IMG/VR virus record: IMGVR_UViG_3300046462_000479
Direction: 5' to 3' (one strand)
From: a virus
Taxonomy: Duplodnaviria; Heunggongvirae; Uroviricota; Caudoviricetes
Length of the DNA stretch: 64,000 bases
Part shown: positions 143 to 59,255 of the stretch, piece by piece
How positions within the stretch are numbered: position 1 is the first letter of the stretch
How the letters are laid out: each line of letters starts with the position of its first letter
Notes under the pieces: generated by a model
Seen by the model: the letters and a program-made list of their open reading frames with translations, nothing else
Databases searched by the model: none
Told to the model about the DNA's origin: nothing
Made by a program: the position numbers and the translations under genes

Positions 143-275
143 CCCCGCGCGCATCATCCGCATCGAGTGGAAAGACGGATGGCAAATCGTCACCTTTGCC
201 GATGGCTACCAGATCGGCGGCCCTGTCACCAGTGTGACAAGTCACACTCGACCCCCTGAAGGGAGGAACCCATGA
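135..275 (+). CDS. hypothetical 46-aa protein (GTG start; same frame as track ORF 69..275)
   Basis: GTG start overlaps the upstream stop; the stop TGA overlaps the next ATG (ATGA coupling). Confidence 0.3.
   Translation: MRSPARIIRIEWKDGWQIVTFADGYQIGGPVTSVTSHTRPPEGRNP
232..247. repeat. 16-bp palindrome family, variant GTGTGACAAGTCACAC
   Basis: One mismatch to GTGTGACATGTCACAC; 24 nt upstream of the ATG at 272. Confidence 0.8.
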
Positions 276-349
276 TCCTCGCAATGTGGATATACGCGGC
301 GCTATGCGTCGCGGCCATAGTCTGGCTATGGTGGCGCTTCGCCCGCTAG
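272..349 (+). CDS. 25-aa membrane peptide (MILAMWIYAALCVAAIVWLWWRFAR)
   Basis: RBS GAAGGGAGGA then ATG; hydrophobic; followed by a terminator. Confidence 0.35.
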   Translation: MILAMWIYAALCVAAIVWLWWRFAR

Positions 350-371
350 ACAATCGAGACTTCGCCCACTA

Positions 372-401
372 AGAGCCCCGCCCACGCGGGGCTCTTTTTT
401 A
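372..401 (+). terminator. rho-independent terminator (10-bp GC stem AGAGCCCCGC/GCGGGGCTCT, loop CCAC, T6)
   Basis: Perfect inverted repeat followed by TTTTTT. Confidence 0.6.
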
Positions 402-411
402 TGCCCAAAAG

Positions 412-1104
412 TCAGACAGTGTGACATGTCACACTCAAAAGCTGATGGCCGAGGAGTTCCGTGTAGGCGGGCGGGATCGCTTCCTTCAACGCCTGCCAAT
501 CAGAGGACCAGTCGATCCCCAAAGCCTCGCGCGCCAGCTGGACTTTCTCCCGCCGGGAAAACTGGCCCTTCCCGACACCGTACTTACGGCGCGCATAAGC
601 CGGATGATGCCCGTAAATCCCGATCGTCTGCTCCCGCCAACACCCGGCACACACCGGCACGAACGGCATCCAGTTCGCCTCAAACAACCGATGCCTACGC
701 AACATATACCGGCCCGCCGGGGCTGAACACCCAGCGTAAGTGACGCCCAACCCGAACATGCTCCCACACAACAACACCGGATCATGGAGTGGAGCACCCT
801 CCACGTTCTCGATCACGAACGGCAAACCCGACGCGGTTAATTTCTCCCGGACCTGCTCGATCAGCCTCGGATGGAAACGATTCGCCCCCGGCAGAATCCT
901 CGTGGACGAGTACGCCTGACATGGAGGCGAAGCGTGCACCGCATCGAACCCGTCCAACGGGAAGGTGAGCGCGTCCGCACATATGAACTCGAACGGATAG
1001 TCCGGCTGCGGCACGATGTCCACGCCCACCACCTCGAAGCCTGCACGCGCATACCCGACGGCCGCGCCACCGAGCCCGCAAAACAGGTCAATTAACTTGA
1101 CCAA
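412..1104 (-). CDS. DNA (cytosine-5)-methyltransferase (Dcm-like), TTG start
   Basis: Motif I FCGLGG, catalytic PPCQ, ENV motif; 230 aa. Confidence 0.85.
   Translation of the reverse strand: MVKLIDLFCGLGGAAVGYARAGFEVVGVDIVPQPDYPFEFICADALTFPLDGFDAVHASPPCQAYSSTRILPGANRFHPRLIEQVREKLTASGLPFVIENVEGAPLHDPVLLCGSMFGLGVTYAGCSAPAGRYMLRRHRLFEANWMPFVPVCAGCWREQTIGIYGHHPAYARRKYGVGKGQFSRREKVQLAREALGIDWSSDWQALKEAIPPAYTELLGHQLLSVTCHTV
419..434. repeat. 16-bp palindrome GTGTGACATGTCACAC
   Basis: Perfect match. Confidence 0.9.
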
Positions 1105-1126
1105 GGGTACCCCCAGGGTGTATACT
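1097..1126 (+). promoter_or_regulatory. promoter TTGACC-N18-TATACT with TG upstream of the -10 and a C-rich spacer; divergent from the methyltransferase gene
   Basis: Consensus hexamers; SD GGAGG 10 nt downstream; one of a family of four. Confidence 0.55.
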
Positions 1127-1174
1127 TTAGTTAATGGAGGAGATGGATTCCTCCCCTAGCGAAAGGAGCGGGAC

Positions 1175-1372
1175 ATGCCGCTCGCAATCGTCCTGAAGTC
1201 CAAGCAGGGCTTCAGCGACTACATCCTCCCCCGCCGGTACGACACCCTCGGGGACGCGCTCGATGCGCGAGCAAAGAAGCGCGAGATGAACGGCGAGTCG
1301 ATGTTCCAGACGCGAGAGATCGCCGAGGTCATCGACACCAAGCGCACCACCAAGATCGTGCGCTTCCTCTAG
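1175..1372 (+). CDS. hypothetical protein (65 aa)
   Basis: ORF track; SD AAAGGAGCGGG upstream. Confidence 0.55.
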   Translation: MPLAIVLKSKQGFSDYILPRRYDTLGDALDARAKKREMNGESMFQTREIAEVIDTKRTTKIVRFL

Positions 1373-1384
1373 CAGACTGAGCCA

Positions 1385-1400
1385 GTGTGACATGTCACAC
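1385..1400. repeat. 16-bp palindrome
   Basis: Perfect match. Confidence 0.9.
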
Positions 1401-1436
1401 TGGCTCGATGTGCTAACGGGAAGGAGGAACAAGCAC

Positions 1437-1553
1437 ATGGCAGCATGGCACGAATACCCCAAGCACCAGCGGCGCAACAACCTGATGTGGACCCTGTTCC
1501 TCATCGGCGAAATCGTCGCCTTCCTCGTCATCCTCTACACCCAATCCCACTAA
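1437..1553 (+). CDS. 38-aa membrane peptide (MAAWHEYPKHQRRNNLMWTLFLIGEIVAFLVILYTQSH)
   Basis: RBS GGAAGGAGGA; transmembrane segment; not in the ORF track. Confidence 0.35.
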   Translation: MAAWHEYPKHQRRNNLMWTLFLIGEIVAFLVILYTQSH

Positions 1554-1567
1554 AGGAGTCCACCCAC

Positions 1568-1807
1568 ATGGACACCAGCTACCCGCTCACCAAGCTCGCG
1601 GGTGGGGCCGCAATCGTCGCCCACAAATGGAACGACCCCTGGGGCACCTGCCCCTGCGGACACCTCGTCTGGGTCGGCGACGACGACACCCACACCTGCG
1701 GCGGATGCGGCACCACGCGCCCCGTCATCCACATCGACGGTGCCCGCACCTACGGGCCGTTCCAAGACTTGACCCACAAGCTCCACGAACGCGCCGTCAC
1801 CGGCTAA
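1568..1807 (+). CDS. hypothetical Cys/His-rich (Zn-binding-like) protein, 79 aa
   Basis: Internal ATG of track ORF 1445..1807, preceded by SD AAGGAG; CPCGH...HTCGGCG. Confidence 0.5.
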   Translation: MDTSYPLTKLAGGAAIVAHKWNDPWGTCPCGHLVWVGDDDTHTCGGCGTTRPVIHIDGARTYGPFQDLTHKLHERAVTG

Positions 1808-1824
1808 CTCCCTTCCCAGAAGGT

Positions 1825-1840
1825 GTGTGACATGTCACAC
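1825..1840. repeat. 16-bp palindrome (20-bp extended GTGTGTGACATGTCACACAC)
   Basis: Perfect match. Confidence 0.9.
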
Positions 1841-1868
1841 ACCCTGGGGGAAAGGAGGTGGCACCCAT

Positions 1869-2123
1869 ATGGCCCGCTTCGCAATCGAAGACCCGCACGA
1901 TCACACGCCGATCGGCACCAGCGGCGACACCGAGTCGCCCTTCCGCGAACTCACGTTCACGGAACTCACCAGCCAGGACAACTTCGGCGACTACTTCCGC
2001 TTCAGCGTCACCGTGCGCCTGAAGCGCGACGAAGCGCTACTGCTCGCACGCAAGCTGGAGTTCTTCATCCAGGAGGCAACACAGCGCGACTGCCGCGTCT
2101 ACCTCGGCGTCAAGAACTTCTAG
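1869..2123 (+). CDS. hypothetical protein (84 aa)
   Basis: ATG after SD GGAAAGGAGGTGG; the track ORF starts inside the palindrome. Confidence 0.55.
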   Translation: MARFAIEDPHDHTPIGTSGDTESPFRELTFTELTSQDNFGDYFRFSVTVRLKRDEALLLARKLEFFIQEATQRDCRVYLGVKNF

Positions 2124-2141
2124 CCTTTCTGACTCCACCCA

Positions 2142-2157
2142 GTGTGACTTGTCACGC
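2142..2157. repeat. palindrome variant GTGTGACTTGTCACGC
   Basis: Two mismatches. Confidence 0.8.
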
Positions 2158-2191
2158 TGGAGTGGGGTGAGAAAGGAGGTGGCCCACCCAC

Positions 2192-2404
2192 ATGAGCTAT
2201 CCAACCACCCACGTAGAGCTGACCACGCTCGACCTGCTCAACCTGAAAAACCTGGTCCGGTACCGCATCACCAGGCTGCAACAGGACAAGCACGACCACC
2301 CGGACCTCGCGCACGTGTTCGAGGAACAGATCCAGGTGCACGAGCAGACGTTCGCACGGCTCGACCGCGCGCACATCGACATGTACCCCGCCCGCGCCGC
2401 CTAG
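2192..2404 (+). CDS. hypothetical protein (70 aa)
   Basis: ORF track; SD GAGAAAGGAGGTGG. Confidence 0.55.
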   Translation: MSYPTTHVELTTLDLLNLKNLVRYRITRLQQDKHDHPDLAHVFEEQIQVHEQTFARLDRAHIDMYPARAA

Positions 2405-2416
2405 CTGACCACACCA

Positions 2417-2432
2417 GCGTGACATGTCACAC
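2417..2432. repeat. palindrome variant GCGTGACATGTCACAC
   Basis: One mismatch. Confidence 0.85.
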
Positions 2433-2512
2433 GCTGGTGGGGTGAGAAAGGAGGTGAAATATCAAGACACAGACCGTGTTGCGATAATCACAACATGCAA
2501 GGAGAAGCAACC

Positions 2513-2788
2513 ATGGCAACGGCCGAGCCCACACTCGCCGACGACCAGATCCTGCTCAACGTGCCACGCACCTCAGCAGACCTGGTCCGCACCACCTGGG
2601 ACTACGAAGTCCGGGTCATCTACCTGCCCGACCTGTCCGCACCCGAATGCGCCTGGGTGTCCATCCTCGACCGCAAAGGCAACATGATCGGCGAACCGAT
2701 CACCCTCACGGTCGAGGACGGAATCGAAGCCTTCAAGAACCCGCGCAAGTTCAGCAACGAGCTGAACGACTTCCTCGCACGGCACTAA
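2513..2788 (+). CDS. hypothetical protein (91 aa)
   Basis: ATG after AAGGAGAAGCAACC; protein-like composition. Confidence 0.55.
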   Translation: MATAEPTLADDQILLNVPRTSADLVRTTWDYEVRVIYLPDLSAPECAWVSILDRKGNMIGEPITLTVEDGIEAFKNPRKFSNELNDFLARH

Positions 2789-2816
2789 CCAACCTCAGTT
2801 GTCAAAGACCAAGGGA

Positions 2817-2832
2817 GCGTGACATGTCACGC
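2817..2832. repeat. palindrome variant GCGTGACATGTCACGC (symmetric)
   Basis: Perfect dyad. Confidence 0.85.
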
Positions 2833-2863
2833 TCCCAAACCTCTACCCACGCAGAGGAGCACC

Positions 2864-3115
2864 ATGGAACGAAACGAACTGCTGCAAGAAATCGAGCGGC
2901 GCTCCACCACCCTCGAACTCGGTGTTCCGATCGCCAACGGCGACGGCACCTTCACCCGGTACAGCCTGCTCGGAGCGGTCGGCCAGAAACTCGCCGCCGC
3001 CGCCGAAAACGCGAAGGAAGAACCGGTCGTCTGTCCCCACTGTGGCGCGGTTAACCGCGCCACCGAGGACCAGGGACTCGTCTACTGCCTGGAGTGCAAC
3101 TACATCGTCGACTAG
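2864..3115 (+). CDS. Zn-ribbon protein (CPHCG...CLECN), 83 aa
   Basis: Two CxxC pairs. Confidence 0.55.
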   Translation: MERNELLQEIERRSTTLELGVPIANGDGTFTRYSLLGAVGQKLAAAAENAKEEPVVCPHCGAVNRATEDQGLVYCLECNYIVD

Positions 3116-3285
3116 CCCGCCCACACGTGCTTTACTATAGGACACGCAAGGGGTGACGCCGTAGCTGAAAATCGCTGCAAACAGGAGCAAATCATACCAC
3201 CCCCAGCCCCAAAAAACCAGTGCCTCTGGCCCCCGTTCCGCCTGAACGGGGGCGAAGCGCATGTCTGCGCCGAGAAGAAACCCCA

Positions 3286-3301
3286 GTGTGACATGTCACA
3301 C
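3286..3301. repeat. 16-bp palindrome
   Basis: Perfect match. Confidence 0.9.
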
Positions 3302-3318
3302 TCCCAAAAGAAGGAGAA

Positions 3319-3675
3319 ATGAGGACCATCTACGCCTACAGCAGCGAGAGAGAAGTCGAGCTGGGCCGCGACCCACACGCCGTCCGCATCATGATCAAAG
3401 ACAGCGACTACAACGCGTTCTCACGCCAACGCGTAGCCGAGAACCAGTACCTCGGCCGCTACCAGATCGGCGAATACATGACCGTCTACGACTACCGGCA
3501 CAAGCGCACCTACAAGCTCGCCAACGCACCCTGCGGACTCGGCTGCCGCTGCGCAGCCGTAGCCATCCAAGTCTGCAGCGAATGCGAACGCGAAGACGGA
3601 ATCATGACCGGAGAAGGATTCTGTGTCACCTGCTACTCCATCCTCAACGGCGAAACCGGAGAAGATCAGCAATGA
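3319..3675 (+). CDS. Cys-rich hypothetical protein (118 aa)
   Basis: ORF track; SD AGAAGGAGAAATG. Confidence 0.55.
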   Translation: MRTIYAYSSEREVELGRDPHAVRIMIKDSDYNAFSRQRVAENQYLGRYQIGEYMTVYDYRHKRTYKLANAPCGLGCRCAAVAIQVCSECEREDGIMTGEGFCVTCYSILNGETGEDQQ

Positions 3676-4007
3676 GCGACCTCACAACTCGCCTCATCGA
3701 ACTCGTCGACGGCGTCCACCTCGCCAGCGAATACGACGACGTAATCGCCAAAGAGCCTGGAACCGCGGCCCTGTTCATCCCTGGCAAAGCCGAAGGAGCA
3801 ATCCCGAACGGCACACGAATCGTCAAGTGCAACACCCAAACAAGCGACTCGTTCTTCGACGGAGACGCGGGAACCGTAAAGGCCAGCCATCTATCCGATG
3901 GGCTGCCAGGAATCCCGCCGTCACCATTCTTCTACTTCGTCGAGTTCGACAAGAAGCCAGGACTGCCTGTCGCGATCTTTGGTAACCGGATCACCACGGG
4001 CATCTGA
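3672..4007 (+). CDS. hypothetical protein (111 aa)
   Basis: ATGA overlap with the upstream stop; the upstream part of track ORF 3261..4007 has an Arg-rich artefactual composition. Confidence 0.5.
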   Translation: MSDLTTRLIELVDGVHLASEYDDVIAKEPGTAALFIPGKAEGAIPNGTRIVKCNTQTSDSFFDGDAGTVKASHLSDGLPGIPPSPFFYFVEFDKKPGLPVAIFGNRITTGI

Positions 4008-4008
4008 A

Positions 4009-4209
4009 ATGAAAGCTGAGCTGCTCACCAAACAAGGCGGCCACGTCGCCTCAATCGAAATGCCGTTCTTCATGACCCCACCCCAAGTGGTGGTATGGGG
4101 TGAACGCATCTTCGTCCACGACGACAGGCCGTTCGTCGAGTCAGAACACGGACACACCTACTACGAAGCATTCGCATGGGCCTACGCAGAACCGATCGGC
4201 GCAACATGA
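4009..4209 (+). CDS. hypothetical protein (66 aa)
   Basis: Internal ATG of the track ORF. Confidence 0.5.
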   Translation: MKAELLTKQGGHVASIEMPFFMTPPQVVVWGERIFVHDDRPFVESEHGHTYYEAFAWAYAEPIGAT

Positions 4210-4301
4210 GCCGCGAAATGAAAGGCATCGTCGCGATCGTCGCCTACGGCATCGTTTTGTGCACCGTGATGCTGTTAAACCACTACGGATATGGAGTGTG
4301 A
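4206..4301 (+). CDS. 31-aa membrane peptide (MSREMKGIVAIVAYGIVLCTVMLLNHYGYGV)
   Basis: ATGA overlap; hydrophobic. Confidence 0.3.
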   Translation: MSREMKGIVAIVAYGIVLCTVMLLNHYGYGV

Positions 4302-4551
4302 CATGTCACACACAGCAGTCGAAACAGTCGGAGAAAGGATCAGACGTCTCCGAACAGAACTCGGCATGAGCCAACGCGACCTCGCAGAACCCGAATACAC
4401 GTTCGCGTACATCAGCCATCTGGAAGCAGGCAACCGGACGGCCAGCCTCACCGCCCTCGTCAAATTCGCGGAAAAGCTCAACACCAGCGCCCTCTATCTC
4501 CTCACTGGCGACGAGCATCGCGACTGCCCATTCTGCGGACGGCACGAGTGA
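4291..4551 (+). CDS. XRE-family helix-turn-helix DNA-binding protein (Cro/CI-like); an alternative start is the ATG at 4303, at the palindrome centre
   Basis: RIRRLRTELGMSQRDLAE...ISHLEAGNR HTH signature. Confidence 0.8.
   Translation: MECDMSHTAVETVGERIRRLRTELGMSQRDLAEPEYTFAYISHLEAGNRTASLTALVKFAEKLNTSALYLLTGDEHRDCPFCGRHE
4296..4311. repeat. 16-bp palindrome; its central ATG is a candidate start codon
   Basis: Perfect match; GGAG 7 nt upstream. Confidence 0.9.
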
Positions 4552-4709
4552 TGCTAGTCGCAATCAGCAGCCTGCAAGCGCTCGTCCGCAACATGCACAA
4601 CCTCGAACGGCAAGGCATGAACGTCCCCGCCAGCATGTACGGGCGGGCACACACCCTCCTCAACGCGCTCAACCACCACATCGAAAGAGAAAGGAAATCC
4701 CATGAGTAA
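4551..4709 (+). CDS. hypothetical 52-aa protein
   Basis: TGATG overlap with the upstream stop; not in the track. Confidence 0.3.
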   Translation: MLVAISSLQALVRNMHNLERQGMNVPASMYGRAHTLLNALNHHIERERKSHE

Positions 4710-4846
4710 AAGAATGCTTGAACTCACGATCCATTACGCGACCGCGTACCGCTGGAACCATGCGTGACCCAGCACGCATCCCCTTGACCCGTGGTACTGG
4801 GAAGAGGACGAGTGGCTGCGACGCATCGACCTATTCAGGAGGGAAC

Positions 4847-5224
4847 ATGGAACTCAAAGTGGGCGACAAGATCACCCGGTACATGAGCGACGAACAGATA
4901 CCCATCCCAGCAGAAGTGTTTGCTGTCGACGACGACTACGTCTACCTCAGCAACGGGGTAATGACCCGCAAAGATCAATGCTGGAAGTTCGACAAAACCT
5001 GCGGGTATGAAGTCGACGAAGAGCTGGGGCTAGGACGGATGGAGGACGGCACCGTTCTGACCAGCAGCTACATCCCCGTCAAGGAATACGGGCCGCCAGA
5101 ACTACTCACTCGCGACCAGCTGATCGCGCTGAAACTCGCCGCCGTCGCCAAACGCGATGGCGTGTCGAAAGAAACGGCGCTCAGCCTCATTTTGGGCTTC
5201 ACAGATAGGCCGGAAGGAGTGTGA
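4847..5224 (+). CDS. hypothetical protein (125 aa)
   Basis: Internal ATG after AGGAGGGAAC; the upstream part of the track ORF is not protein-like. Confidence 0.5.
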   Translation: MELKVGDKITRYMSDEQIPIPAEVFAVDDDYVYLSNGVMTRKDQCWKFDKTCGYEVDEELGLGRMEDGTVLTSSYIPVKEYGPPELLTRDQLIALKLAAVAKRDGVSKETALSLILGFTDRPEGV

Positions 5225-5234
5225 CATGTCACGC
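5219..5234. repeat. palindrome variant GTGTGACATGTCACGC; its central ATG is the start of the next gene
   Basis: One mismatch. Confidence 0.85.
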
Positions 5235-5633
5235 CTAGCGCTTCCCTGCATCGCCTGCGGCCGCGAACTACACAACGTCGACGACATGGCTGGCAATCAG
5301 CCGTACAACGGCACCGCGTTCACGACGCATGGCCACTACGGGTCCACGATCTACGACCCGATGGACGGCCACTACCTCGAAATCAACGTATGTGACGCCT
5401 GCCTCGCACTCCATCCGGAACGGGCACTCGAAGGCCGCGACCGCAGACCCGTCATGGAAGACGGGGTCATCGTCCGATTCGAGGACGTGGAATGGCAGGA
5501 GATGCCGTGGATGCCAGATCCCGAGTCGATCGACTATGCGCTCAAGGTCACGCGCAAGGAGAGCGGCATCGACGACCTCAATCCTCTTCGCCAGATTCCA
5601 GTTCCGGAGTCTGATCCCCCAGCTGCAGCCTGA
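5226..5633 (+). CDS. Cys-rich (CIACG...CDAC) hypothetical protein, 135 aa
   Basis: ATG inside the palindrome; SD GGAAGGAG. Confidence 0.55.
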   Translation: MSRLALPCIACGRELHNVDDMAGNQPYNGTAFTTHGHYGSTIYDPMDGHYLEINVCDACLALHPERALEGRDRRPVMEDGVIVRFEDVEWQEMPWMPDPESIDYALKVTRKESGIDDLNPLRQIPVPESDPPAAA

Positions 5634-6045
5634 ACTTCACCGCGTCCGCGTTCTGGCCCGCGAACTCGATCCGGGTCGGGATGTGGTATTTCTCGGGATG
5701 GCGGCGTTCAAGCAGCCATTCCAGATGTTTGGTGTCGAACTCCTGGACCACGCCGACCAGCTGGCCGCGCTGAAAGATCGGCCGCTCGTTCGGTTCTAGC
5801 GCACGCCGGACGTTCTCGTATTCGAGAGCGTCGTCGATCATTTTTTGCGCGGCGTCGTACAAGGCCGAGAATCGTGGCGACGCTTTCCGTCGTGACTCGA
5901 CCGCGTTCGGGTGTACGCCAGCAGCCCTGGCTGCTTTGCCGATGATCGCGTACTCGTTCACGAGGGCCTCCAGGAAATCTTTCTCCCATGCTTCCGGAGG
6001 CCCTTCGTCCTCGAACAGATTTACTTCGTCTTCGGAGTGTGACAT
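5578..6045 (-). CDS. HTH protein resembling the terminase small subunit N-terminal HTH
   Basis: AIIGKAARAAGVHPNAVESRRK...ALYDAA motif; start ATG at the palindrome centre. Confidence 0.5.
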   Translation of the reverse strand: MSHSEDEVNLFEDEGPPEAWEKDFLEALVNEYAIIGKAARAAGVHPNAVESRRKASPRFSALYDAAQKMIDDALEYENVRRALEPNERPIFQRGQLVGVVQEFDTKHLEWLLERRHPEKYHIPTRIEFAGQNADAVKFRLQLGDQTPELESGEED

Positions 6046-6052
6046 GTCACAC
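6037..6052. repeat. 16-bp palindrome (supplies the ATG of the minus-strand gene)
   Basis: Perfect match. Confidence 0.9.
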
Positions 6053-6937
6053 TACTTCGGTGCGGTATCCGTTGCCGTCCCGGTAGAGGGCGTGCCGTTG
6101 TGTGCAGCGGCCGCAAACGATGTAGCCGAGCGGCCTTTCTGGTCCGTCAACGGGTACGACCTGGACCGGATATTCGCGGCCGAGCGTGTCGATCCTGGTT
6201 TCCGTGGAAGGCCTTTCCACGTCTCGTTCGATCTGGGCTCGGACAGCCTCGACTGTTTCGGGCGCAGGCTGGGCTGTTTCTTCTTGGCGCATCCTGTTCC
6301 GGATGGAGCCGACGGTCGGGTGCGACACTCCGCAAACCTCTGCGATGCGACGGTCCGAGCGCGACCAGTCGCGTTGTAGCTCTTTGCGTACGAGCGACTG
6401 TTTCTGCTCTTTGGTCAGTTGGCGTCGGTTCGCGTTCAGCGCGATCGACAGTTCGTATTCGCCTGCCTGGTCGAGGTCGGACACGAACACGACCGGGATC
6501 TCGGTCAAGCCCAACAGTTTGCTGGCCATCAGCCGGTGACGGCCGTCGATCAGCATGTGGCGGCCGATCACGATCGGCACCCTGACGCCTTCGTCCTCGA
6601 TGCTGTTGATCAGCGCCCGCTGTTCTTCTGCGCTTAGGTCAGGCAGCGGCCCCGATTGCAGCTCGATCTCGCTCCTCAGTTCCGCCAGGAGCGACGAGGC
6701 CGAGGATGGCGAGAGCCCTAGCTCGCTGGCGAGGGTAGTCAGGTTGTAGCCATCGCTCATCTCGTCCGCTAAGAGCAGTTTGATCGCCTGCGCCCTCGGG
6801 GACAACGCCTCCAAGTCCACCGTCCGGTAGTTCGTCGAAAACGTAGTCGGGGGTTCGGGAGCCGTTTCTTCCGAGAACTCGTCTGGGGCCGACGTCGACG
6901 GCTCGTTGGCTACATATCCATCGTCCGTACTGCTCAA
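6047..6937 (-). CDS. ParB-like nuclease-domain protein with C-terminal HTH (TTG start)
   Basis: PIVIGRHMLIDGRHRLMASKLLG ParB/Srx core; HTH VSHPTVGSIRNR. Confidence 0.7.
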   Translation of the reverse strand: MSSTDDGYVANEPSTSAPDEFSEETAPEPPTTFSTNYRTVDLEALSPRAQAIKLLLADEMSDGYNLTTLASELGLSPSSASSLLAELRSEIELQSGPLPDLSAEEQRALINSIEDEGVRVPIVIGRHMLIDGRHRLMASKLLGLTEIPVVFVSDLDQAGEYELSIALNANRRQLTKEQKQSLVRKELQRDWSRSDRRIAEVCGVSHPTVGSIRNRMRQEETAQPAPETVEAVRAQIERDVERPSTETRIDTLGREYPVQVVPVDGPERPLGYIVCGRCTQRHALYRDGNGYRTEVV

Positions 6938-7184
6938 AAGTGGCCATCCTTTCCGGGTTGTAGCGGGCCTCGCATCGGTGCAGGATGATGATTAATTCTT
7001 GGAGCGAGTCGTCGTAGAAGCTGGGGCGTAGGAACATGCCCCAGCCGTCGAAGGCGTCGTCGAGGTACTTGCGGCAGAACACTTCTGCGTCCTCGACTGG
7101 TCCTGGATGCCAGCGGGTCGGCCTGCGGTTGAGGTCGTAGGCTGACGCACCGATTTTCAGGGGCTCGGGTAGGAGACGTTTCAC
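6938..7184 (-). CDS. hypothetical protein (~80 aa; 3' end uncertain, its frame runs on into the ParB gene)
   Basis: N-terminal 80 aa of track ORF 6639..7184 are protein-like; the rest overlaps the ParB gene out of frame. Confidence 0.35.
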
Positions 7185-7222
7185 GCTCGTCCGCGAGTGT
7201 AGTACAGGCGACCGGACAGACC

Positions 7223-7252
7223 TTGATCTACCCCACCCCAGTCATGTATACT
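7223..7252 (+). promoter_or_regulatory. promoter TTGATC-N18-TATACT (TG-extended, C-rich spacer)
   Basis: Same family as 1097, 20082 and 21533. Confidence 0.5.
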
Positions 7253-7329
7253 AATGTAATGGAGGGGAGGTACGGGCTGTCGGTCAGCGGCCCGGAGAGC
7301 GGCTGCAACCCGCAACTCCCCTCCTCACA

Positions 7330-7345
7330 GTGTGACTTGTCACAC
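7330..7345. repeat. palindrome variant GTGTGACTTGTCACAC (centre TT); lies in the 5' leader, ~+75 from the promoter
   Basis: 33-bp block identical to 11411-11444. Confidence 0.85.
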
Positions 7346-7364
7346 TCCTAGCGGAAGGAACCTG

Positions 7365-7571
7365 ATGCTTGCACCAGCAGAAGCGATCGGCGTCGAGCAG
7401 ATCATCCCCTCGACCGGACCGCACGAGCAGATCCTGGTCGGCCACGAGCAGGTGGTGGCACTGCACTTCTTCGAGGCGATCGACTATGACCCGGAGTACG
7501 GTCCGGGCGCGAAGGTGTACCGGCCGGTAGGGCTGGCGGACGCAGCCACGATCAGAGGATGGTTGGCGTGA
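7365..7571 (+). CDS. hypothetical protein (68 aa)
   Basis: ATG after GGAAGGAACC. Confidence 0.5.
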   Translation: MLAPAEAIGVEQIIPSTGPHEQILVGHEQVVALHFFEAIDYDPEYGPGAKVYRPVGLADAATIRGWLA

Positions 7572-7846
7572 TGGGAGAGTTCAAGGAGCTACGTAACGAG
7601 ATTTCTGACAACCCGGCCGGGTTCGATCAGATGAAGGCGCAAGCGCTCGAACTGCTGCGCGACACGGGCGCCTACCTGTTGATGGCGAAGCAGGACAACG
7701 GGTTGCATTGTTTGGCTGCGGTCGAGCCGGGCGTGAACTCGGACGAGTTCATGCTCGGGATAATGCAGGGGATGACAGAAATCCTTGAACGAATGGAGGA
7801 TCTGAGCGAGGAAGCAAGGAGGCTTGACGATGGCCAAGAAGCCTGA
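7571..7846 (+). CDS. hypothetical protein (91 aa)
   Basis: ORF track (GTG/ATG). Confidence 0.5.
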   Translation: MGEFKELRNEISDNPAGFDQMKAQALELLRDTGAYLLMAKQDNGLHCLAAVEPGVNSDEFMLGIMQGMTEILERMEDLSEEARRLDDGQEA

Positions 7847-8036
7847 GCCGGTGCAGGGTTTCATGTTCGAGACTGTCGGGGAAGCTGACGGCCGTAACGA
7901 GACGGTCTGCAAGATCATTGAGCGGGCCACTACCGACAACTCGTTCGAGAACGGATGCGCGTTTCTTGTCGAGTTCGGGGACGGCCACCAGATGGAGGCT
8001 TTCGCGTCTGAGCTGCGACCCTGGTATCCGCTCTAA
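7830..8036 (+). CDS. hypothetical protein (68 aa)
   Basis: ORF track. Confidence 0.45.
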   Translation: MAKKPEPVQGFMFETVGEADGRNETVCKIIERATTDNSFENGCAFLVEFGDGHQMEAFASELRPWYPL

Positions 8037-8038
8037 CA

Positions 8039-8054
8039 GTGTGACATGTCACGC
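8039..8054. repeat. palindrome variant ...CACGC; its central ATG is the start of the next gene
   Basis: One mismatch. Confidence 0.85.
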
Positions 8055-8870: not shown

Positions 8871-9039
8871 GCGTCAGTCACCATCTCGTGGATTAACGAA
8901 CCATCACTCAATTCGTCTCACAAAAGGCGACGAGGCATTCGTCGAGCTGATTAGGGCAGAGTTGGGTGCGGGGAAAGGAGAGGCTATCAGGACAGCCATC
9001 CGCGTGTACGCGGGCATCCTGATGCAAAAGAAAAAGTAG
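8863..9039 (+). CDS. putative ribbon-helix-helix (CopG/Arc-like) protein, ~58 aa, TTG start (unannotated)
   Basis: IRLTKGDEAFVELIRAELGAGKGEAIRTAIRVYAGIL. Confidence 0.35.
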   Translation: MAERQSPSRGLTNHHSIRLTKGDEAFVELIRAELGAGKGEAIRTAIRVYAGILMQKKK

Positions 9040-9040
9040 A

Positions 9041-9056
9041 GTGTGACATGTCACAC
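9041..9056. repeat. 16-bp palindrome
   Basis: Perfect match; the Ku GTG start is 14 nt downstream. Confidence 0.9.
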
Positions 9057-9912: not shown

Positions 9913-10262
9913 GTATCTCTTCGGGCGACATTGGTCGCCTGTCCGTCGAGCTGCAGGCCCGCTTCCCGGAAGAGGACAACGCGTCCCGTCTGGACGGCTG
10001 GCTGGCGTCAGCTGATATCGACGAGGAGGCGTTCGAGACGCTGATCCAGTCGGCAATCACCGGGTTTTTGCAGCTGTTGCAGGAACGCATCCAGAAAGGG
10101 GGTGACGAGAGGATCGAAGCAGAGGACGCCGACGGTCGCCGGATCGAGATGTTCGGGCTGGACGTCGGCAGCCTGGTCGGCAGCATCGCTTGCAACATGT
10201 TCATTCTCGGTTTCGAAACAGCGACCGAGTACGGCAAGCGTGACATGTCACACGTCGAGTAA
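9909..10262 (+). CDS. hypothetical protein (117 aa)
   Basis: ATGA overlap with ku. Confidence 0.5.
   Translation: MSISSGDIGRLSVELQARFPEEDNASRLDGWLASADIDEEAFETLIQSAITGFLQLLQERIQKGGDERIEAEDADGRRIEMFGLDVGSLVGSIACNMFILGFETATEYGKRDMSHVE
10238..10253. repeat. palindrome variant GCGTGACATGTCACAC
   Basis: One mismatch. Confidence 0.85.
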
Positions 10263-53900: not shown

Positions 53901-54371
53901 TCACCCTCCTAACGCGGCCTCTGCCGCCGTTGCCGCGTCTTCGCCGCGTACCCGCGACCCGTCACTCAGCGTGTACCAGCCACCCCCTGTGTGTTCCGGG
54001 AAGGAGTGTGACATGTCACCCTGGTCTTCCTCTTCTTCGGCTTCTGGTTCGTCCTCGCTTACGGGCTGGACGGCATCCCGTTCCACTCCCTCGTAGTTCA
54101 GGTAGGAGTGGGTCGGGTCAGACAGGCCGTGCCCTGTTGGGGCAGCCGGATCAGGCAGCTGCCCCACGCTGGGCCAGTCTTCGCCGTCGTCTGGGACGTT
54201 GATGGCCATCATGGCGGCCTTCCCGAGTTCCACCAGATTGTCGGCCGCGCGTCCCCACTCGCCCGCAGGGATGACATCCCCAGGCTCGTAATCCACGATT
54301 AGACCAGAACCGATCGGATGTTCGGCCTTGATGGGCTTAACCGCGACGTAGGAGAAGACGATGTGAGGCAT
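53901..54371 (-). CDS. acidic hypothetical head-module protein (156 aa), containing an internal palindrome
   Basis: ORF track. Confidence 0.5.
   Translation of the reverse strand: MPHIVFSYVAVKPIKAEHPIGSGLIVDYEPGDVIPAGEWGRAADNLVELGKAAMMAINVPDDGEDWPSVGQLPDPAAPTGHGLSDPTHSYLNYEGVERDAVQPVSEDEPEAEEEEDQGDMSHSFPEHTGGGWYTLSDGSRVRGEDAATAAEAALGG
54006..54021. repeat. palindrome variant GTGTGACATGTCACCC inside a CDS; its central ATG is in frame
   Basis: Two mismatches. Confidence 0.8.
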
Positions 54372-55820: not shown

Positions 55821-57008
55821 TTATGCCACCCCCCCGTTGCCAGCACCGTAGTGGTACTCCTCGGCCTGGTAACGCTCGTACAGGCGGGCACCCTCGGCGG
55901 TCTTAAGGACCCGGTCGAGCGCCTGCTCCTGCGACAGCTCGCCTGACTTCTCGACCAGGTCGGATGCCATCTTCTCGATCTGCGCCCACGGGCCTTCCTT
56001 GGTCTCGCCGTCGTTCAGTGACGCGCGTCCCATCTCCGTGAACAAGCCGCCCTTGGCGACTCTTTCCTCGGCACCGCTGAGAAGCGCTTCCAGCTTCTCG
56101 AACGTCTCCGGATCGAACTTCTCTGACGCCTCTTTCAGGATCGGAGCGAGGTCGTCGGTCGGAGCGACATGCGAGTAGGAGGCGGCCTTCTGGATCATGT
56201 CGCGGTGACGGAGATCGTCCTGCGACTTGGCCAGCTCCTCCCTCGTCTCTGCCAGCTCACTCTCTGTCTTGTCCGCCTTCGAGATGATCTCCTCGAAGAA
56301 CGGTCGGCTCTCAACAGGGACGCCAGAGAGGTCCCACGTCCCGTCTTCCTTGCGAACCGGCACCTGGACTTCCACTGTGCCCCCTTCGTTGGTTTCTACT
56401 TCGTTTGCCACATCGCCGCTATCGGAATCTGTCTCAGCTTTGCTGAACGGCTTCGCCTTGCGGCCGCCGAACGGCAGCTTCTTTTTCTTCTTGCCCTTAC
56501 TGTCGTCAGCGTCGTCGTCTGGCTCCGCGTCGTTCCCGTCGGAATCTTGGGCGACTTTCGGGGCGGACGCCGTTCCTTCCAGATCGGTGCCGGAACCGGA
56601 ACCGTCCTTGTCGGCCCCGGACGCGGACCCGTACGAGTCGTCCTCGTCGGCGTCTTCGTCGCCGAACAGCTCGGTGGGAGACTTCACCGACGTCGAGTTC
56701 AGCTTCGGGTTGTTACGGCCGTACAGTTCGGTGCCGAGCTTCTCTACCAGCTCGGGAGAAAACTCCCCCTCCACGCCTTTGAGTAGGCGTACGGCAGCGA
56801 CAACGGCCCGCTCGACGGTCTCGTCCATGATCCCGTCCTTGCGGATCTCATCAAGCAGGGCGCCTTCTCGCTCCCAGGGGACTTCGAGAATGTCGTCAAG
56901 CTCGCTGTCCAACTGGTCATCCCCTTTCAGCAGCAGAAAGCGCCGCTTATTCGCGGCGCGGCGGACGACAGAAACCTCGTCCCCATCTACTCCTCCGAGA
57001 AACCTCAC
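55821..57008 (-). CDS. scaffolding-like protein (acidic, coiled coil, 395 aa)
   Basis: Asp/Glu-rich low-complexity segments; position. Confidence 0.5.
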   Translation of the reverse strand: MRFLGGVDGDEVSVVRRAANKRRFLLLKGDDQLDSELDDILEVPWEREGALLDEIRKDGIMDETVERAVVAAVRLLKGVEGEFSPELVEKLGTELYGRNNPKLNSTSVKSPTELFGDEDADEDDSYGSASGADKDGSGSGTDLEGTASAPKVAQDSDGNDAEPDDDADDSKGKKKKKLPFGGRKAKPFSKAETDSDSGDVANEVETNEGGTVEVQVPVRKEDGTWDLSGVPVESRPFFEEIISKADKTESELAETREELAKSQDDLRHRDMIQKAASYSHVAPTDDLAPILKEASEKFDPETFEKLEALLSGAEERVAKGGLFTEMGRASLNDGETKEGPWAQIEKMASDLVEKSGELSQEQALDRVLKTAEGARLYERYQAEEYHYGAGNGGVA

Positions 57009-57026
57009 GTGCAGCGGTATCGGAAG

Positions 57027-59231
57027 CTACCGGCCGACCATCCAATCCTGCGGCTCCTGCCGCATATATCCGGTTTCGGATTGGGGGATCTGCATGTCGC
57101 GGCGGATGCCGGTGCCGCCGATGGACAGGCCCGTGTATTTGCCGTCCAGGACGTCCTGCCACACGGCCGGGTCTTCGCAGTGCAACACCATCACCCAGGT
57201 GCCCTTCTTCACCATCTCTGTGCCGTCGTAGGTGAAATCGGTGGGGGCAATGAACGACTCGACCGGGACTAGGCTTGGCTTGTTCGTTTTGAAGAATCCG
57301 GGGCGTGCGTGCTGCAGCTTCGACACCGACGCTTTCCCCTTGGCCACGTTCTTCATGTACTTGTGGGCGGCCGACTCGACCTCCTGCGGGATCATCCAGT
57401 CGTCCTGGCTGTCCAGGGCGTTTGGTTCCAGTACGACGCCGTAGATCAGCTGCCGGTGCTTGTCCGCCTTCTGTACCTGGTATTTCAGGCGCCGGTTGGC
57501 GTACATGATCGAGATGTTCTTCAGGGGGACATTGACGTGAACGTCTGAGATGGTGGGGCCGGAAACGGCTGCCATCGCGCCAGCCTCGCCCTGCCCTTCC
57601 AGTCCGGCGGCAGCGTCGCCTACGTCGTTGGAGGGGGGAGCGTCTCCGGCCGGACCTTCGGCGAAGTCTTTGCCGAGCATATCTCCGCCGATGATGTCCA
57701 GCACCTCGTTCCACGAATGGGGCGGCATTTCGGTGTAGTGGCTGACCACGTTCGGGTTGGTCCACTGCACGTTCCGGTTGGCGTCCTGCATGAAGTCGTT
57801 GGCCTGCACTTTCAGGCATTCTCCTTTGCGGGCCCGATGCTTGGTCGGGTTGGTGCGGCCGATGTAGTGGCCGTCGCGGGTGATCATCCGGTAGCTGTAG
57901 CCGCCGTCGGGTGTGCGGCTCATCCCGTGCACACGCAGGTTCAGTGTGGCCGGACGTGCCTGCGCTTTCTTCACCTCGAACGCCTTCTTCGCTTTCAGCT
58001 TGCCGCCTTTGAAGTCGATCTCTAGGATGGTGCCGGGACCGATCTCGTCGGCCTGGATCGCTCTGGTGTCGACTTTGCTGCGGTAGCCGTGGCCACCCAG
58101 CCAGCCTTCGGCCAGCTCGATGTTGCGGCTGTGGGTGATCAGCGCGACCGTGTGGCCTTGGTCGACCATCTTCAACAGCTTCTCCAACGCTGGGATGAAC
58201 CGCTTCTGGTAGGCGTTGAAGGATTCGCCGCCGTCGACGGGCTTGTCGGGATGGTCGTCCATGAACGGCTTCAGTTTCGGGATCACGTCCGCGGACGAGT
58301 GGCCTGCGAACGAGCCGAGGTTCCAGGGCCGGTAGGCGTTGTCTGACTTGACCGGGGCCCCGCAGATACGGCTGGCGATCTTCGAGGTCTGCTCGGCCCG
58401 TGTCAGCGTCGAGCTGTAGATCGTCTCCACTCCCGCGTTCTTCAAGAACTTGCCGAGGTTGCGGGCCTGTACGCGGCCTTGCGCGTCCAGCGGGATGTCG
58501 CGCCAGCCTTGCACGATGTCGTGCGGCGCTCCCGGCTTGTTGTAGCGGGTCTTCGCGTGCGAGACCAGGAACAGTTTCCCTGGCGTCGTTTTCATGGTCG
58601 GCTCGATCGCTTCCCCGAACTCGCGCAGCTTGTCACGCAGCCGGGCGGGAGGGTCTTCGGAGTGGCGTTCCTCCTGCACGTACAACGGGTCATGCTTGTC
58701 GATCCGTCCTTCCCAGCGGTCACAGACGTAGCCTTGGTCGACCTGGACGTTGTCGAACATTTCGCAGCGTCCGGCCGTGAAGAAGTCGCAGTTGCCGCAA
58801 TCTTCGTCTGCGTCGTCTGAGGGACGGTAGTGCGCCCAGCCGGGGATGCCGCTCTTCTTCACGGACTCGGCCAGCTCCTGCTTCTCCCATTCCTTTACGT
58901 CGCGGAGCGTCATCACGCCGCCGTTCGCTTCCACTTTCTCCCGGATGTTGGCGTGTTCCGGCTCAGCCAGACCGTCCAGCCAGTAGGACAGCTCCTGGTC
59001 GACAGGGTCGTGGCCGTACTTGTCGTTGCATTCGGACCGCAGGTCGGGATGGGCGGCCCAGAAGCGGCGTAGCTCCTGTTTGGCGTCCTCTTCGATGGCG
59101 CTGACGTTGGCGCAGTCTTTGTCGACGGTGTGGGGAAGCTTGCCTTTGTTGTCGAAATGATGGCGCTTCACCCAGTCGTGTCCAAAGCGGGCGTTCAGGT
59201 ACTCGCGCTGTTGTTGGCTACGGGCAGGCAT
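57027..59231 (-). CDS. prohead protease (HK97/S78-like C-terminal domain) fused to a degenerate histidine-phosphatase (PGAM/SixA-like) domain and a Cys-rich N-terminus (734 aa)
   Basis: C-terminus DSQDDWMIPQEV...LQHA...GLSIGG (His and Ser); middle QGWRDIPLDAQGRVQARNLGKFL...TIYSSTLTRAEQT...ALITHS. Confidence 0.7.
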   Translation of the reverse strand: MPARSQQQREYLNARFGHDWVKRHHFDNKGKLPHTVDKDCANVSAIEEDAKQELRRFWAAHPDLRSECNDKYGHDPVDQELSYWLDGLAEPEHANIREKVEANGGVMTLRDVKEWEKQELAESVKKSGIPGWAHYRPSDDADEDCGNCDFFTAGRCEMFDNVQVDQGYVCDRWEGRIDKHDPLYVQEERHSEDPPARLRDKLREFGEAIEPTMKTTPGKLFLVSHAKTRYNKPGAPHDIVQGWRDIPLDAQGRVQARNLGKFLKNAGVETIYSSTLTRAEQTSKIASRICGAPVKSDNAYRPWNLGSFAGHSSADVIPKLKPFMDDHPDKPVDGGESFNAYQKRFIPALEKLLKMVDQGHTVALITHSRNIELAEGWLGGHGYRSKVDTRAIQADEIGPGTILEIDFKGGKLKAKKAFEVKKAQARPATLNLRVHGMSRTPDGGYSYRMITRDGHYIGRTNPTKHRARKGECLKVQANDFMQDANRNVQWTNPNVVSHYTEMPPHSWNEVLDIIGGDMLGKDFAEGPAGDAPPSNDVGDAAAGLEGQGEAGAMAAVSGPTISDVHVNVPLKNISIMYANRRLKYQVQKADKHRQLIYGVVLEPNALDSQDDWMIPQEVESAAHKYMKNVAKGKASVSKLQHARPGFFKTNKPSLVPVESFIAPTDFTYDGTEMVKKGTWVMVLHCEDPAVWQDVLDGKYTGLSIGGTGIRRDMQIPQSETGYMRQEPQDWMVGR

Positions 59232-59239
59232 CAGAAGGA

Positions 59240-59255
59240 GTGTGACATGTCACAC
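59240..59255. repeat. 16-bp palindrome 9 nt upstream of the protease-fusion start
   Basis: Perfect match. Confidence 0.9.

Follow-up and report, generated by a model that had tools for sequence, protein, structure and literature searches.

Variation within genomes of a palindrome repeated between phage genes favors a duplex-DNA site over an RNA hairpin

Why does a phage carry the same short palindrome between one early gene and the next, and is that palindrome read in DNA or in RNA? The question arises from the virus record IMGVR_UViG_3300046462_000479 (Caudoviricetes), of which a stretch of 64,000 nucleotides was analyzed (the window, by which we mean this whole stretch). In it a 16-bp dyad, GTGTGACATGTCACAC, recurs just upstream of start codons. 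An earlier reading of the sequence (the original prediction) had described the copies and left the choice between DNA and RNA open. We find that the dyad is greatly over-represented, that it is wedged between consecutive genes, often at positions shared by related phages in which its sequence type has been swapped, and that the two halves of the site vary independently of one another, a pattern which favors recognition of duplex DNA.

A search of the window for GTGTGACATGTCACAC gave 14 exact matches and 26 matches when up to two mismatches were allowed, whereas dinucleotide-preserving shuffles gave expectations of 0.00 and 0.04, respectively. The frequency is therefore far above chance. All 26 coordinates of the original prediction were recovered by the search and no copy was found elsewhere in the window, but only 14 of these sites, rather than about 26, are perfect GTGTGACATGTCACAC; the other 12 have one or two mismatches. 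In the imperfect copies the differences are mainly at the center or at positions 2 and 15, which are symmetric (T to C and A to G); these are the variant types originally described. An AA or TT center is found in the copies at 232, 2142, 7330, and 11414, a C at position 2 or a G at position 15 in those at 2142, 2417, 2817, 5219, 8039, 10238, 23620, and 24272, and a C at position 15 in that at 54006. The copy at 2817, GCGTGACATGTCACGC, is a perfect palindrome, but of a variant type. The three half-sites at 8408, 13640, and 19285 are also present and read GTGTGACA[TA]G, that is, one half plus the center. The extended consensus is A-16mer-T: a flanking A is found in 24 of the 26 copies, a flanking T in 18, and the outer CA..TG in about half. 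The dyad of 16 bp is effectively 18 bp long in the window genome and 20-22 bp long in its relatives.

The window sequence lies on a 73.4-kb Logan contig (SRR26076576_208117), which was found by exact protein look-up, and its ParB-like protein is identical on a 77.6-kb JGI contig. A flank of 3.9 kb on the window's left contains four further copies plus one weak copy, and two of these left-flank copies are 59 bp apart in a noncoding gap of ~590 bp between divergent genes. Given 26 copies in the window and at least four beyond its left edge, the ~77-kb genome has at least 30 copies. A 33-bp block (the palindrome plus TCCTAGCGGAAGGAA, which includes the Shine-Dalgarno (SD) sequence) is identical at 7328-7360 and 11412-11444. 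This block coincides with Logan contig ends, so that k-mer assemblies of the genome are broken by the repeat. A TCCTAGC element related to it is found again at 24294 and 24313.

Three blocks make up the window: small plus-strand genes in a left arm, an early operon that runs rightward from a SigA-like promoter at 7223, and a virion block on the minus strand, from 28.6 kb to the window end. Genes were called from third-position GC and the calls were later confirmed by those of the collections themselves. Three copies fall in the virion block, as originally proposed, whereas the non-virion part has 23 rather than 21. Placement was quantified using 87 copies pooled from nine loci with independent gene calls and was compared with that of random positions. 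Most copies (76%) are intergenic, compared with 14% of random positions. A start codon lies within −16 to +60 nt of 53% of the copies (14% for random positions) and a stop codon within −16 to +30 nt of 48% (9% for random positions). Spacing of the motif is tighter relative to the upstream stop codon than to the downstream start: the distance from stop to motif has a mode of 2-5 nt, or the motif's own TGA or TAA is the stop, whereas the distance from motif to start is loose (3-47 nt). Within the window, the upstream stop typically ends 0-29 nt before the motif or inside it, and the start codon follows with a separate SD sequence, which the motif itself lacks. The positional bias noted in the original prediction (copies between consecutive genes, upstream of SD sequences and starts, and denser in the early region) is thus strong. 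The copies and half-sites are given below; the palindromic copies are listed with no strand.

232-247: copy GTGTGACAAGTCACAC, center AA; SD GGGAGG; ATG 272, 24 nt downstream
419-434: perfect copy; 22 nt past the strong terminator 371-396; overlaps the 3' end of the methylase-like open reading frame (ORF) 412-1104, minus strand
1385-1400: perfect copy; upstream TAG ends 13 nt before; GGAGG and ATG 1437, 36 nt downstream
1825-1840: perfect copy; TAA 18 nt upstream; GGAGG and ATG 28 nt downstream
2142-2157: copy GTGTGACTTGTCACGC; TAG 19 nt upstream; ATG 2192, 34 nt downstream
2417-2432: copy GCGTGACATGTCACAC; TAG 13 nt upstream; next start 2513 (Logan gene call)
2817-2832: copy GCGTGACATGTCACGC, the symmetric variant that is the form of relatives L162 and L168; ATG 31 nt downstream
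3286-3301: perfect copy; ATG 3319, 17 nt downstream
4296-4311: perfect copy at a stop/start junction; TGA 4299-4301 closes a 31-aa ORF and the central ATG 4303 opens the 82-aa XRE gene
5219-5234: copy GTGTGACATGTCACGC at a stop/start junction; TGA 5222-5224 closes gene 4718-5224 and ATG 5226 opens a 135-aa ORF
6037-6052: perfect copy at a minus-strand stop/start junction; TGA closes the ParB-like gene 6047-6937, minus strand, and ATG opens the terminase small subunit-like (TerS-like) gene 5578-6045, minus strand
7330-7345: copy GTGTGACTTGTCACAC within the leader of the early operon that runs rightward; ~+71 from the promoter TTGATC-18-TATACT (7223-7252); shares the 33-bp block with 11414
8039-8054: copy GTGTGACATGTCACGC; TAA 3 nt upstream; central ATG 8046 opens a 274-aa ORF
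9041-9056: perfect copy before the Ku-like gene; GGAGG and GTG 9070, 13 nt downstream
10238-10253: copy GCGTGACATGTCACAC; ATG 10272, 18 nt downstream
11414-11429: copy GTGTGACTTGTCACAC; TAA 4 nt upstream; GTG 11451, 21 nt downstream
14296-14311: perfect copy; its own TGA closes gene 13759-14301; GGAGG abuts the motif; GTG 14324
17386-17401: perfect copy in a terminator/promoter gap; 6 nt past the terminator 17352-17379 and 4 nt before the −35 TTGACT (17406), spacer 16, TAGGCT
20587-20602: perfect copy at a stop/start junction; TGA 20590-20592 closes gene 20311-20592 and ATG 20594 opens a 105-aa ORF
21846-21861: perfect copy; GGAGG and ATG 21875, 13 nt downstream
23620-23635: copy GCGTGACATGTCACAC; the upstream TAG ends on the first base of the motif; ATG 23653
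24272-24287: copy GTGTGACATGTCACGC before the AAA ATPase gene; counterparts at L160:9885, L161:7641, L162:9952, and L163:9818
27430-27445: perfect copy; TAA 4 nt upstream; next start 27563
38591-38606: perfect copy between convergent genes, located ~265 nt upstream of the gene for the major tail protein; abuts the stop of a 58-aa gene, minus strand, and lies 3 nt past the stop of ORF 38405-38587, plus strand
54006-54021: copy GTGTGACATGTCACCC, in frame within the head gene 53901-54371, minus strand; encodes ..GDMSH.., where L060, L061, and L063 have CGTAACAAGTTACG (..VTSY..)
59240-59255: perfect copy at the junction of portal stop and protease-fusion start; no SD between the motif and ATG 59231 in the window
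8408-8417, plus strand: half-site plus center GTGTGACATG, read from the sequence
13640-13649, plus strand: half-site plus center GTGTGACAAG, read from the sequence
19285-19294, plus strand: half-site plus center GTGTGACAAG, read from the sequence

At four of these junctions (4296, 5219, 6037 on the minus strand, and 20587) the palindrome provides both the TGA of the upstream gene and, at its center, the ATG of the downstream gene. The central ATG is in frame with the downstream ORF in 7 of the 26 copies (1385, 4296, 5219, 6037, 8039, 20587, and 54006); as this is about the fraction that we estimate for chance, a designed role as a start is not claimed. The placements in the virion block had been described correctly, with 59240 before the protease fusion, 54006 within a head gene, and 38591 ahead of the major tail gene, as had the position of the 7330 copy downstream of a SigA-like promoter (~+71 versus the ~+75 first given). 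A recognizable promoter of the SigA type adjoins just 4 of the 99 copies found across all genomes, and SigA-like promoters are few; the motif was thereby ruled out as being itself a promoter. Two copies, 419 and 17386, directly follow strong terminators and the latter is also just upstream of a −35 element, whereas other copies are paired or clustered in long noncoding gaps beside a conserved gene encoding a protein of ~300 residues. The asymmetric centers (AA or TT) are found in both senses relative to transcription, as judged by inspection rather than by a formal test.

Seven loci from soil assemblies that cover the early region of related phages (L160-L163 and L166-L168) were reached through homologues of the AAA ATPase and ParB-like proteins. 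Each of these has 7-16 copies per 10-21 kb. The clade shares the scaffold GYGT-N-ACATGT-N'-ACRC, the relatives having GCGT-N-ACATGT-N'-ACGC, usually with cc..gg flanks. The form of the window, with G at position 5, is CAGTGTGACATGTCACACTG and the alternatives at positions 5/12 are T/A and A/T. The relatives are distributed as follows.

Position 5 is T: L160 and L166
Position 5 is G: L162 and L168
Position 5 is A: L163
Position 5 is G and T mixed: L161 and L167

Despite these differences, the sites are often found at conserved positions. A copy just upstream of the AAA ATPase gene is found in all five genomes that were compared (the window and L160-L163) with the sequence types swapped. The same is seen in the virion block. 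Capsid relatives from IMG/VR (74-84% identity) lack the window motif in their virion regions, but a subgroup of them (L060-L064) has instead CGTAAC-NN-GTTACG, which has the same 2-bp center, and these sites match the positions of the 59240 copy (portal stop and protease start) and the 54006 copy (~300 nt after the capsid gene). At the portal/protease junction L060, L062, and L064 have their own palindrome, and at 59240 the window motif occupies the place where relatives have an SD sequence. Within the head gene the GDMSH of the window and the VTSY of the relatives are at most one codon apart and precede a conserved FPxHxGGxWY (FPxHxGGxWYxLSxG), whereas two other relatives have no palindrome at this site. 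Positions that are inherited while the sequence type is swapped point to a trans-acting specificity factor that would travel with the phage, and thus not to a host factor. A comparable palindrome was absent from relatives having 52-58% identity in the ATPase and from the cultured Gordonia phage Keelan and the prophage McProf. As these more distant relatives lack it, the element is a trait of one uncultured clade. Queries of IMG/VR with the AAA ATPase and Ku proteins found no relatives.

Because a palindrome remains symmetric under either model, only variation within a genome can discriminate between a DNA site and an RNA hairpin. In L161 and L167, which come from the same sample, the half-sites at position 5/12 are GG in 8 copies, TT in 6, GT in 5, and TG in 4. 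Nine of 23 copies are therefore hybrids and the two halves vary independently (Fisher p = 0.41). Over all genomes together, hybrids in which position 5/12 could not pair make up 21 of 99 copies. In the window, the variants at positions 2 and 15 are likewise independent (two double variants versus 1.2 expected), and those compatible with a U.G pair (four) are no commoner than those giving C.A (three). Predicted folding is −5.5 kcal/mol for the 16-mer alone and −9.7 kcal/mol for the 20-mer. Symmetric copies with their flanks have a mean of −11.2 kcal/mol, compared with a background of −5.4 ± 3.0 kcal/mol, whereas the hybrids have a mean of −8.2 kcal/mol, and the copy preceding the ATPase gene, a hybrid that is conserved in position, is predicted not to fold in L163 (−0.1 kcal/mol) and L162 (−1.9 kcal/mol). 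Complementarity of the flanks beyond the conserved bases is at the level predicted by column composition. The extended stems seen at 1385 and 1825 were considered as structure and rejected as chance, since flank complementarity is at chance level overall. Hence pairing is not maintained by covariation, as it would be in a structured RNA. These half-site, folding, and flank tests favor the duplex-DNA reading over the RNA hairpin, although symmetric copies may also have a role in RNA. The hybrids, the weak folding, the lack of flank covariation, and the copies located beside terminators, upstream of a −35, or in noncoding clusters would all be accommodated if a dimer reads the two half-sites independently on duplex DNA.

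Which protein might this be? Three genes in the window are candidates.

4303-4551, plus strand: candidate 1, an 82-aa XRE-family helix-turn-helix (HTH) protein with a C-terminal CPxCGR tail; Pfam HTH_3 and phage repressor/regulator PHROGs
6047-6937, minus strand: candidate 2, a 296-aa ParB-like protein (winged HTH, ParB N-domain, and HTH); Pfam ParB_N and HTH; conserved in L166, L167, and L168
22218-23105, plus strand: candidate 3, a 295-aa ParB-like/DUF6551 protein; present in all four relatives with the motif

The solved structures nearest to the XRE protein are those of DdrOC, C.AhdI, and C.BclI, all dimeric proteins that bind palindromes. The XRE gene is conserved at the syntenic position in L166 and L167. 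In the window the motif covers the start codon of this gene, and in L167 it immediately precedes the gene's SD sequence. The ParB-like protein 6047-6937 aligns with residues 11-169 of a chromosomal ParB (structure 6t1f; the N-terminal and HTH domains), but as its neighbor is a TerS homologue it may belong to packaging instead. Divergence of the DUF6551 protein follows overall relatedness rather than motif type. We infer a ranking in which the XRE protein is the first choice and the ParB-like protein 6047-6937 the second. Elsewhere, XRE homologues encoded near single motif copies (L006, L024, L025, and L023) were examined and set aside, there being no operator-like arrangement.

We give roughly even chances to an explanation in which the sites bind a phage-encoded dimer on DNA and their occupancy modulates transcription along the operons; the binding, the identity of the protein, and the transcriptional consequence are what we infer from the sequence comparisons. 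According to this proposal, a dimeric phage protein would recognize the palindrome on double-stranded DNA at 30 or more sites. Because a 16-bp dyad fits poorly into coding sequence, the sites would be accommodated in the smallest intercistronic gaps, after the stop codon and before the ribosome-binding site, with a few beside promoters or clustered in long noncoding regions. When bound, the sites would impede or silence RNA polymerase over both early arms by roadblock or silencing rather than by promoter occlusion, the outcome being early shut-off or a silent state, and three sites would stand at module boundaries of the late operon. The action would be comparable to that of the stoperators of Cluster A phages or of the KorB operators on plasmid RK2. 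Coevolution of the protein and its sites is proposed to be the reason that sister phages carry one- or two-letter variants of a single scaffold. Support comes from the fact that the phage encodes candidate dimeric palindrome binders.

Several observations weigh against this explanation. The candidate binders, the XRE protein and both ParB-like proteins, are all conserved throughout the clade, and with three to five genomes no covariation of the XRE, ParB-like, or DUF6551 proteins with motif type was shown. As RNA, the symmetric copies would form hairpins of appreciable stability (−9.7 kcal/mol for the 20-mer; with flanks, −11.2 kcal/mol on average), and nearly all copies lie within transcription units at cistron boundaries. 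With so few promoter-adjacent copies (4 of 99), classical operator function is the exception. The two copies in the head block bracket the protease-scaffold-capsid module, an arrangement that would also suit mRNA processing or stabilization, and a roadblock between the portal and capsid genes looks counterproductive for a late operon. Finally, the ~68 kb examined yielded neither an integrase nor a clear lysogeny module, and silencing of the stoperator type would thus lack an obvious lysogenic context.

The rival explanations start from these same observations. If the copies were RNA hairpins at cistron boundaries, they might serve in processing, in protection of mRNA ends, or in gating of translation or reinitiation, perhaps together with a phage RNA-binding protein or nuclease. 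Their location at gene boundaries within operons, the four junctions with stop and start inside the motif, the folding of symmetric copies at about −10 to −14 kcal/mol (some two standard deviations below background), the bracketing of the capsid module together with the copy ahead of the major tail gene, and the replacement of an SD sequence at 59240 are all consistent with such a role. Nevertheless we consider it unlikely, because the half-sites are independent and the 21 hybrids among 99 copies contain an internal mismatch, several of them being at conserved positions where no fold is predicted. Moreover, the flanks do not covary, G.U-compatible changes are not in excess (four versus three C.A), the distance to the start is loose, some copies follow terminators, precede a −35, or lie in long noncoding gaps, and the stem is too short for RNase III. 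A DNA-bound but nontranscriptional role is somewhat less likely still: the sites would be parS-like loading sites for a ParB-like protein and would function in genome organization or condensation, in segregation of an extrachromosomal prophage, or in a step of replication or packaging. The canonical parS is also a 16-bp palindrome, the phage has two ParB-family genes (one encoding the ParB N-terminal and HTH domains and located beside the TerS homologue), the sites cluster in long noncoding regions, and no integrase was seen in the ~68 kb. However, no ParA was noticed among the proteins scanned (a part of the ~100 genes, in a genome seen except for 8 kb), 30 sites wedged between genes along both early arms are unlike known centromeres, the sequence differs from that of parS and the window contains no canonical parS, and divergence of the DUF6551/ParB-like protein tracks phylogeny rather than motif type. 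Note also that KorB shows that ParB-family proteins can regulate transcription, and thus this alternative blurs into the proposal of a transcriptional dimer.

It seems very improbable that the palindrome is selfish or structural DNA, either a small mobile element or a recombination linker between phages, having no regulatory ligand. The motif is absent from homologous junctions of some close relatives, hybrid half-sites could be products of recombination, and two copies have the 33-bp block in common. Against this, diverged genomes keep sites in the same positions but with another sequence type, and homology breakpoints are not enriched at the motif (1 of 76 ends within 30 nt versus 3.6 expected, a crude measure at ~70% identity). 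There are no target-site duplications and no associated transposase, and the strong homogeneity within genomes would need a separate explanation. The remaining alternative, that the phage exploits the binding site of a host transcription factor such as a CRP/GlxR-like protein, we regard as barely credible. It derives from the resemblance of the TGTGA..TCACA half-sites to CRP-family sites that the original prediction had pointed out, and the identical 16-mer does occur in operator-like arrays of unrelated bacteria. The resemblance fails on spacing, which is N4 rather than N6, and TGTGA-N6-TCACA is absent from the window. In addition, sister phages, some of them from similar soils, use different variants, and the 18-mer gave only chance-level single matches across 185,579 species genomes with no host regulon visible. 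A link to restriction-modification was rejected because ACATGT, CATG, and GTGAC have the expected frequency outside the motifs.

Returning to the proposed DNA-bound dimer, a bolder version can be stated, although we find it doubtful. In a genome-wide regulatory code of this clade of uncultured soil actinophages, one XRE dimer (Cro-like) or ParB clamp (KorB-like) would read ~30 dyads that double as gene punctuation, with stop and start at the four junctions, and would thereby govern the transcription, and perhaps the translational coupling, of almost all early genes simultaneously. A change of one base at a symmetric position would give sister phages new specificities, and the system would be a dyad-symmetric, possibly nonlysogenic counterpart of stoperators and immunity. 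If a regulator is confirmed, the phages would provide compact orthogonal operator/regulator pairs, a model for the evolution of new regulatory specificities in phages, and a possible explanation of related repeats in cultured actinophages. In any case, sequence data can now address the DNA versus RNA question and the candidate binders have been narrowed to three genes.

The surrounding genome is distant from those of known phages. Megablast of window positions 1-20000 gave no nucleotide match to deposited phages, and the nearest cultured phages, at ~40% identity, are those of Arthrobacter (portal) and of Gordonia and Mycobacteroides (ATPase). MT835491, the closest deposited phage by portal (47% identity), was rejected as a comparison genome: it has 44% GC, lacks the motif, and has just portal and capsid in common with the window. 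No tRNAs were found in a scan and no large terminase in the window. The proteins identified are the XRE regulator, a Ku homologue, two ParB-like proteins, the AAA ATPase, the portal, the protease fusion, the capsid, and the major tail protein, and glycosyltransferase and methyltransferase genes lie beside the portal gene. At least five such genes adjoin the portal gene on its upstream side (61010-64000, minus strand, and L156 1-4355), and this run resembles the virion-modification cluster described for Cluster O. The ParB-like gene and the TerS homologue that follows it (5578-6937, minus strand) are far from the portal gene and antisense to the flanking early genes. The Ku-like gene (9070-9912) encodes a DNA-end-binding protein that is conserved in L166-L168; Corndog, a Cluster O mycobacteriophage, also encodes Ku, as does mycobacteriophage Omega. 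This protein suggests that the genome is circularized through host nonhomologous end joining.

Other features of the virion block include the 734-aa fusion (57027-59231, minus strand), in which a histidine-phosphatase domain (a Logan Pfam call) is joined to a C-terminal S78-type prohead protease, an unusual combination. The 156-aa head gene that contains a motif copy (53901-54371, minus strand) follows the capsid gene, and its C-terminal ~60 residues match a PHROG annotated as 'Arc-like repressor'. A small and very basic 60-aa ORF (38405-38587, plus strand) is found inside this minus-strand block between the 58-aa gene and the major tail gene. Two minus-strand ORFs are very large: 40953-45494 (1513 aa) and 32826-36740 (1304 aa). 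The latter comes after the tail assembly chaperone and probably encodes the tape measure; the former, located upstream of the connector genes, has no family match. In the left arm the C5-cytosine DNA methyltransferase-like ORF 412-1104 (minus strand) is antisense to its neighbors and short (230 aa versus a 324-position profile). Just outside the window, an antitoxin-type protein with an Xre_MbcA_ParS_C domain is encoded (L158 10293-10850). The conserved ~300-aa protein mentioned above (L158 7912-8856; L166 13436-14329; L167 16492-17385) has no Pfam or PHROG match. Its gene is always behind a long noncoding region with 2-4 palindromes, which in L158 also has a TTGACT-17-TAGTGT promoter, and it could be an autoregulated factor or an initiator.

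Outside the clade, searches of viral, genome, and metagenome collections with the exact 16-mer and 18-mer gave mostly chance-level matches, and the motif sequences had no occurrence in the searchable literature. The three variant 16-mers gave single matches in IMG/VR, none related to the window. Single matches numbered 61 for GCGTGACATGTCACGC (L195-L255), 22 for the T-type, 3 for the A-type, and 43 for the window's own 16-mer. The many matches of GCGTGACATGTCACGC in isolate prophages may reflect a conserved site in some prophage family. A lambdoid family of 15 loci, with a single copy between the cro-like and replication genes, was counted as one coincidental event. Two unrelated IMG/VR lineages (L016/L028/L034 and L036/L033/L020; GC ~0.55) have 4-6 clustered copies of cc-GTGTGACATGTCACAC-gg in noncoding DNA beside an ORF for a TraR/DksA-like zinc finger, and have no detectable protein in common with the window clade. 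The 16-mer is also found in tight tandem arrays with a period of 20-35 bp (L141, L153, L128, L131, and L136) on unrelated metagenomic contigs and in Candidatus Brocadia genomes. These arrays look like operators, iterons, or centromere sites, and the presence of the same 16-mer in such arrays of unrelated bacteria supports the reading as a DNA site.

How, then, does the element compare with known systems? The original prediction had raised the possibility that the genome belongs to Cluster O of the mycobacteriophages and that the element is therefore known. The genome is not a member: there was no megablast match, and of the ~100 window proteins Ku alone (23% identity) has a match in Corndog. 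A search of the window for the Cluster O repeat TGTTCGGNNNCCGAACA with up to two mismatches found no matches, and Corndog, which has 34 copies of that repeat, has none of the window motif. Since the genome falls outside Cluster O, the element is not already known by membership. The analogy itself is apt, both elements being dyads in many copies. Cluster O genomes carry >30 copies per ~70-kb genome of the 17-bp dyad TGTTCGG-NNN-CCGAACA, which is predicted to bind a dimer and is of unknown function (PMC4351075). As in the window genome, with its at least 30 copies, these dyads are denser in the non-structural arm, independent of orientation, and mostly away from promoters, and the genomes also encode Ku, ParB-like proteins, and glycosyl- and methyltransferases beside the portal. 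The Cluster O repeats differ in that the spacer is 3 bp, about one-third are inside genes, and they are not closely linked to starts (PMC4351075). Moreover, the five Cluster O genomes share one motif, whereas the window clade shows variant specificities.

The closest described analogue is the 18-bp inverted repeat of Microbacterium Cluster EG phages, GATCAACC-NN-GGTTGATC, 8-10 copies of which lie 14-22 bp upstream of starts, with function unknown (PMC7302621). These repeats are located in short intergenic gaps among non-structural genes and are conserved despite diverged flanks, and no integrase or repressor was found in those phages (PMC7302621). The perfect dyad, the 2-bp center, and the placement in short intergenic gaps upstream of starts are as in the window. 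In contrast, GATCAACCNNGGTTGATC is absent from the window (no matches with up to two mismatches), and the Cluster EG copies lie at one genome end with no lineage variants reported, whereas those of the window genome occupy both early arms and the virion block. No relatedness to Microbacterium phages was detected beyond a distant portal match.

In mode of action the window element may work like the stoperators or the KorB operators. The stoperators of Cluster A phages (L5 gp71 and relatives) are 20-30 or more short intergenic sites, few of them at promoters, at which a phage regulator blocks elongation (PMC9283540, PMC6550527). Many sites in short gaps and the divergence of site and repressor specificities between related phages are shared with the window clade, but stoperators are 13-bp asymmetric sites of temperate phages that are bound by a monomer in an essential orientation, whereas the window site is a 16-bp dyad. 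Plasmid RK2 has 12 of the operators called OB. These are palindromic sites of KorB, a ParB-family regulator that acts both near and far from promoters (PMC11790492). Again a palindromic operator is repeated on a mobile genome, and the window encodes a ParB-like protein with N-terminal and HTH domains; however, OB sites are far fewer, are not wedged between cistrons, and are unrelated in sequence, and KorB has KorA and a ParA as partners. Start-associated sequences (SAS and ESAS) are found upstream of the starts of non-structural genes in Cluster K and EF phages (PMC3203893, PMC7302621). Like the window palindromes, the ESAS inverted repeats differ between subclusters and have half-site departures that do not support RNA pairing. 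The SAS, however, is a 13-bp asymmetric sequence that includes the SD and lies 3-7 bp from the start in one orientation, whereas the window dyad has a separate SD and is tied to the stop; no SAS consensus was found in the early region of the window. A further analogue is given by the conserved inverted repeats bound by the repressor of Streptomyces phage phiC31. Considered among these systems, the window element forms a new family of a kind of phage element that is already known but mechanistically unsolved. What it adds to the repeats of Clusters O and EG is a scaffold with single-position variants, hybrid half-sites, and homologous positions that include a copy in frame within a coding sequence.

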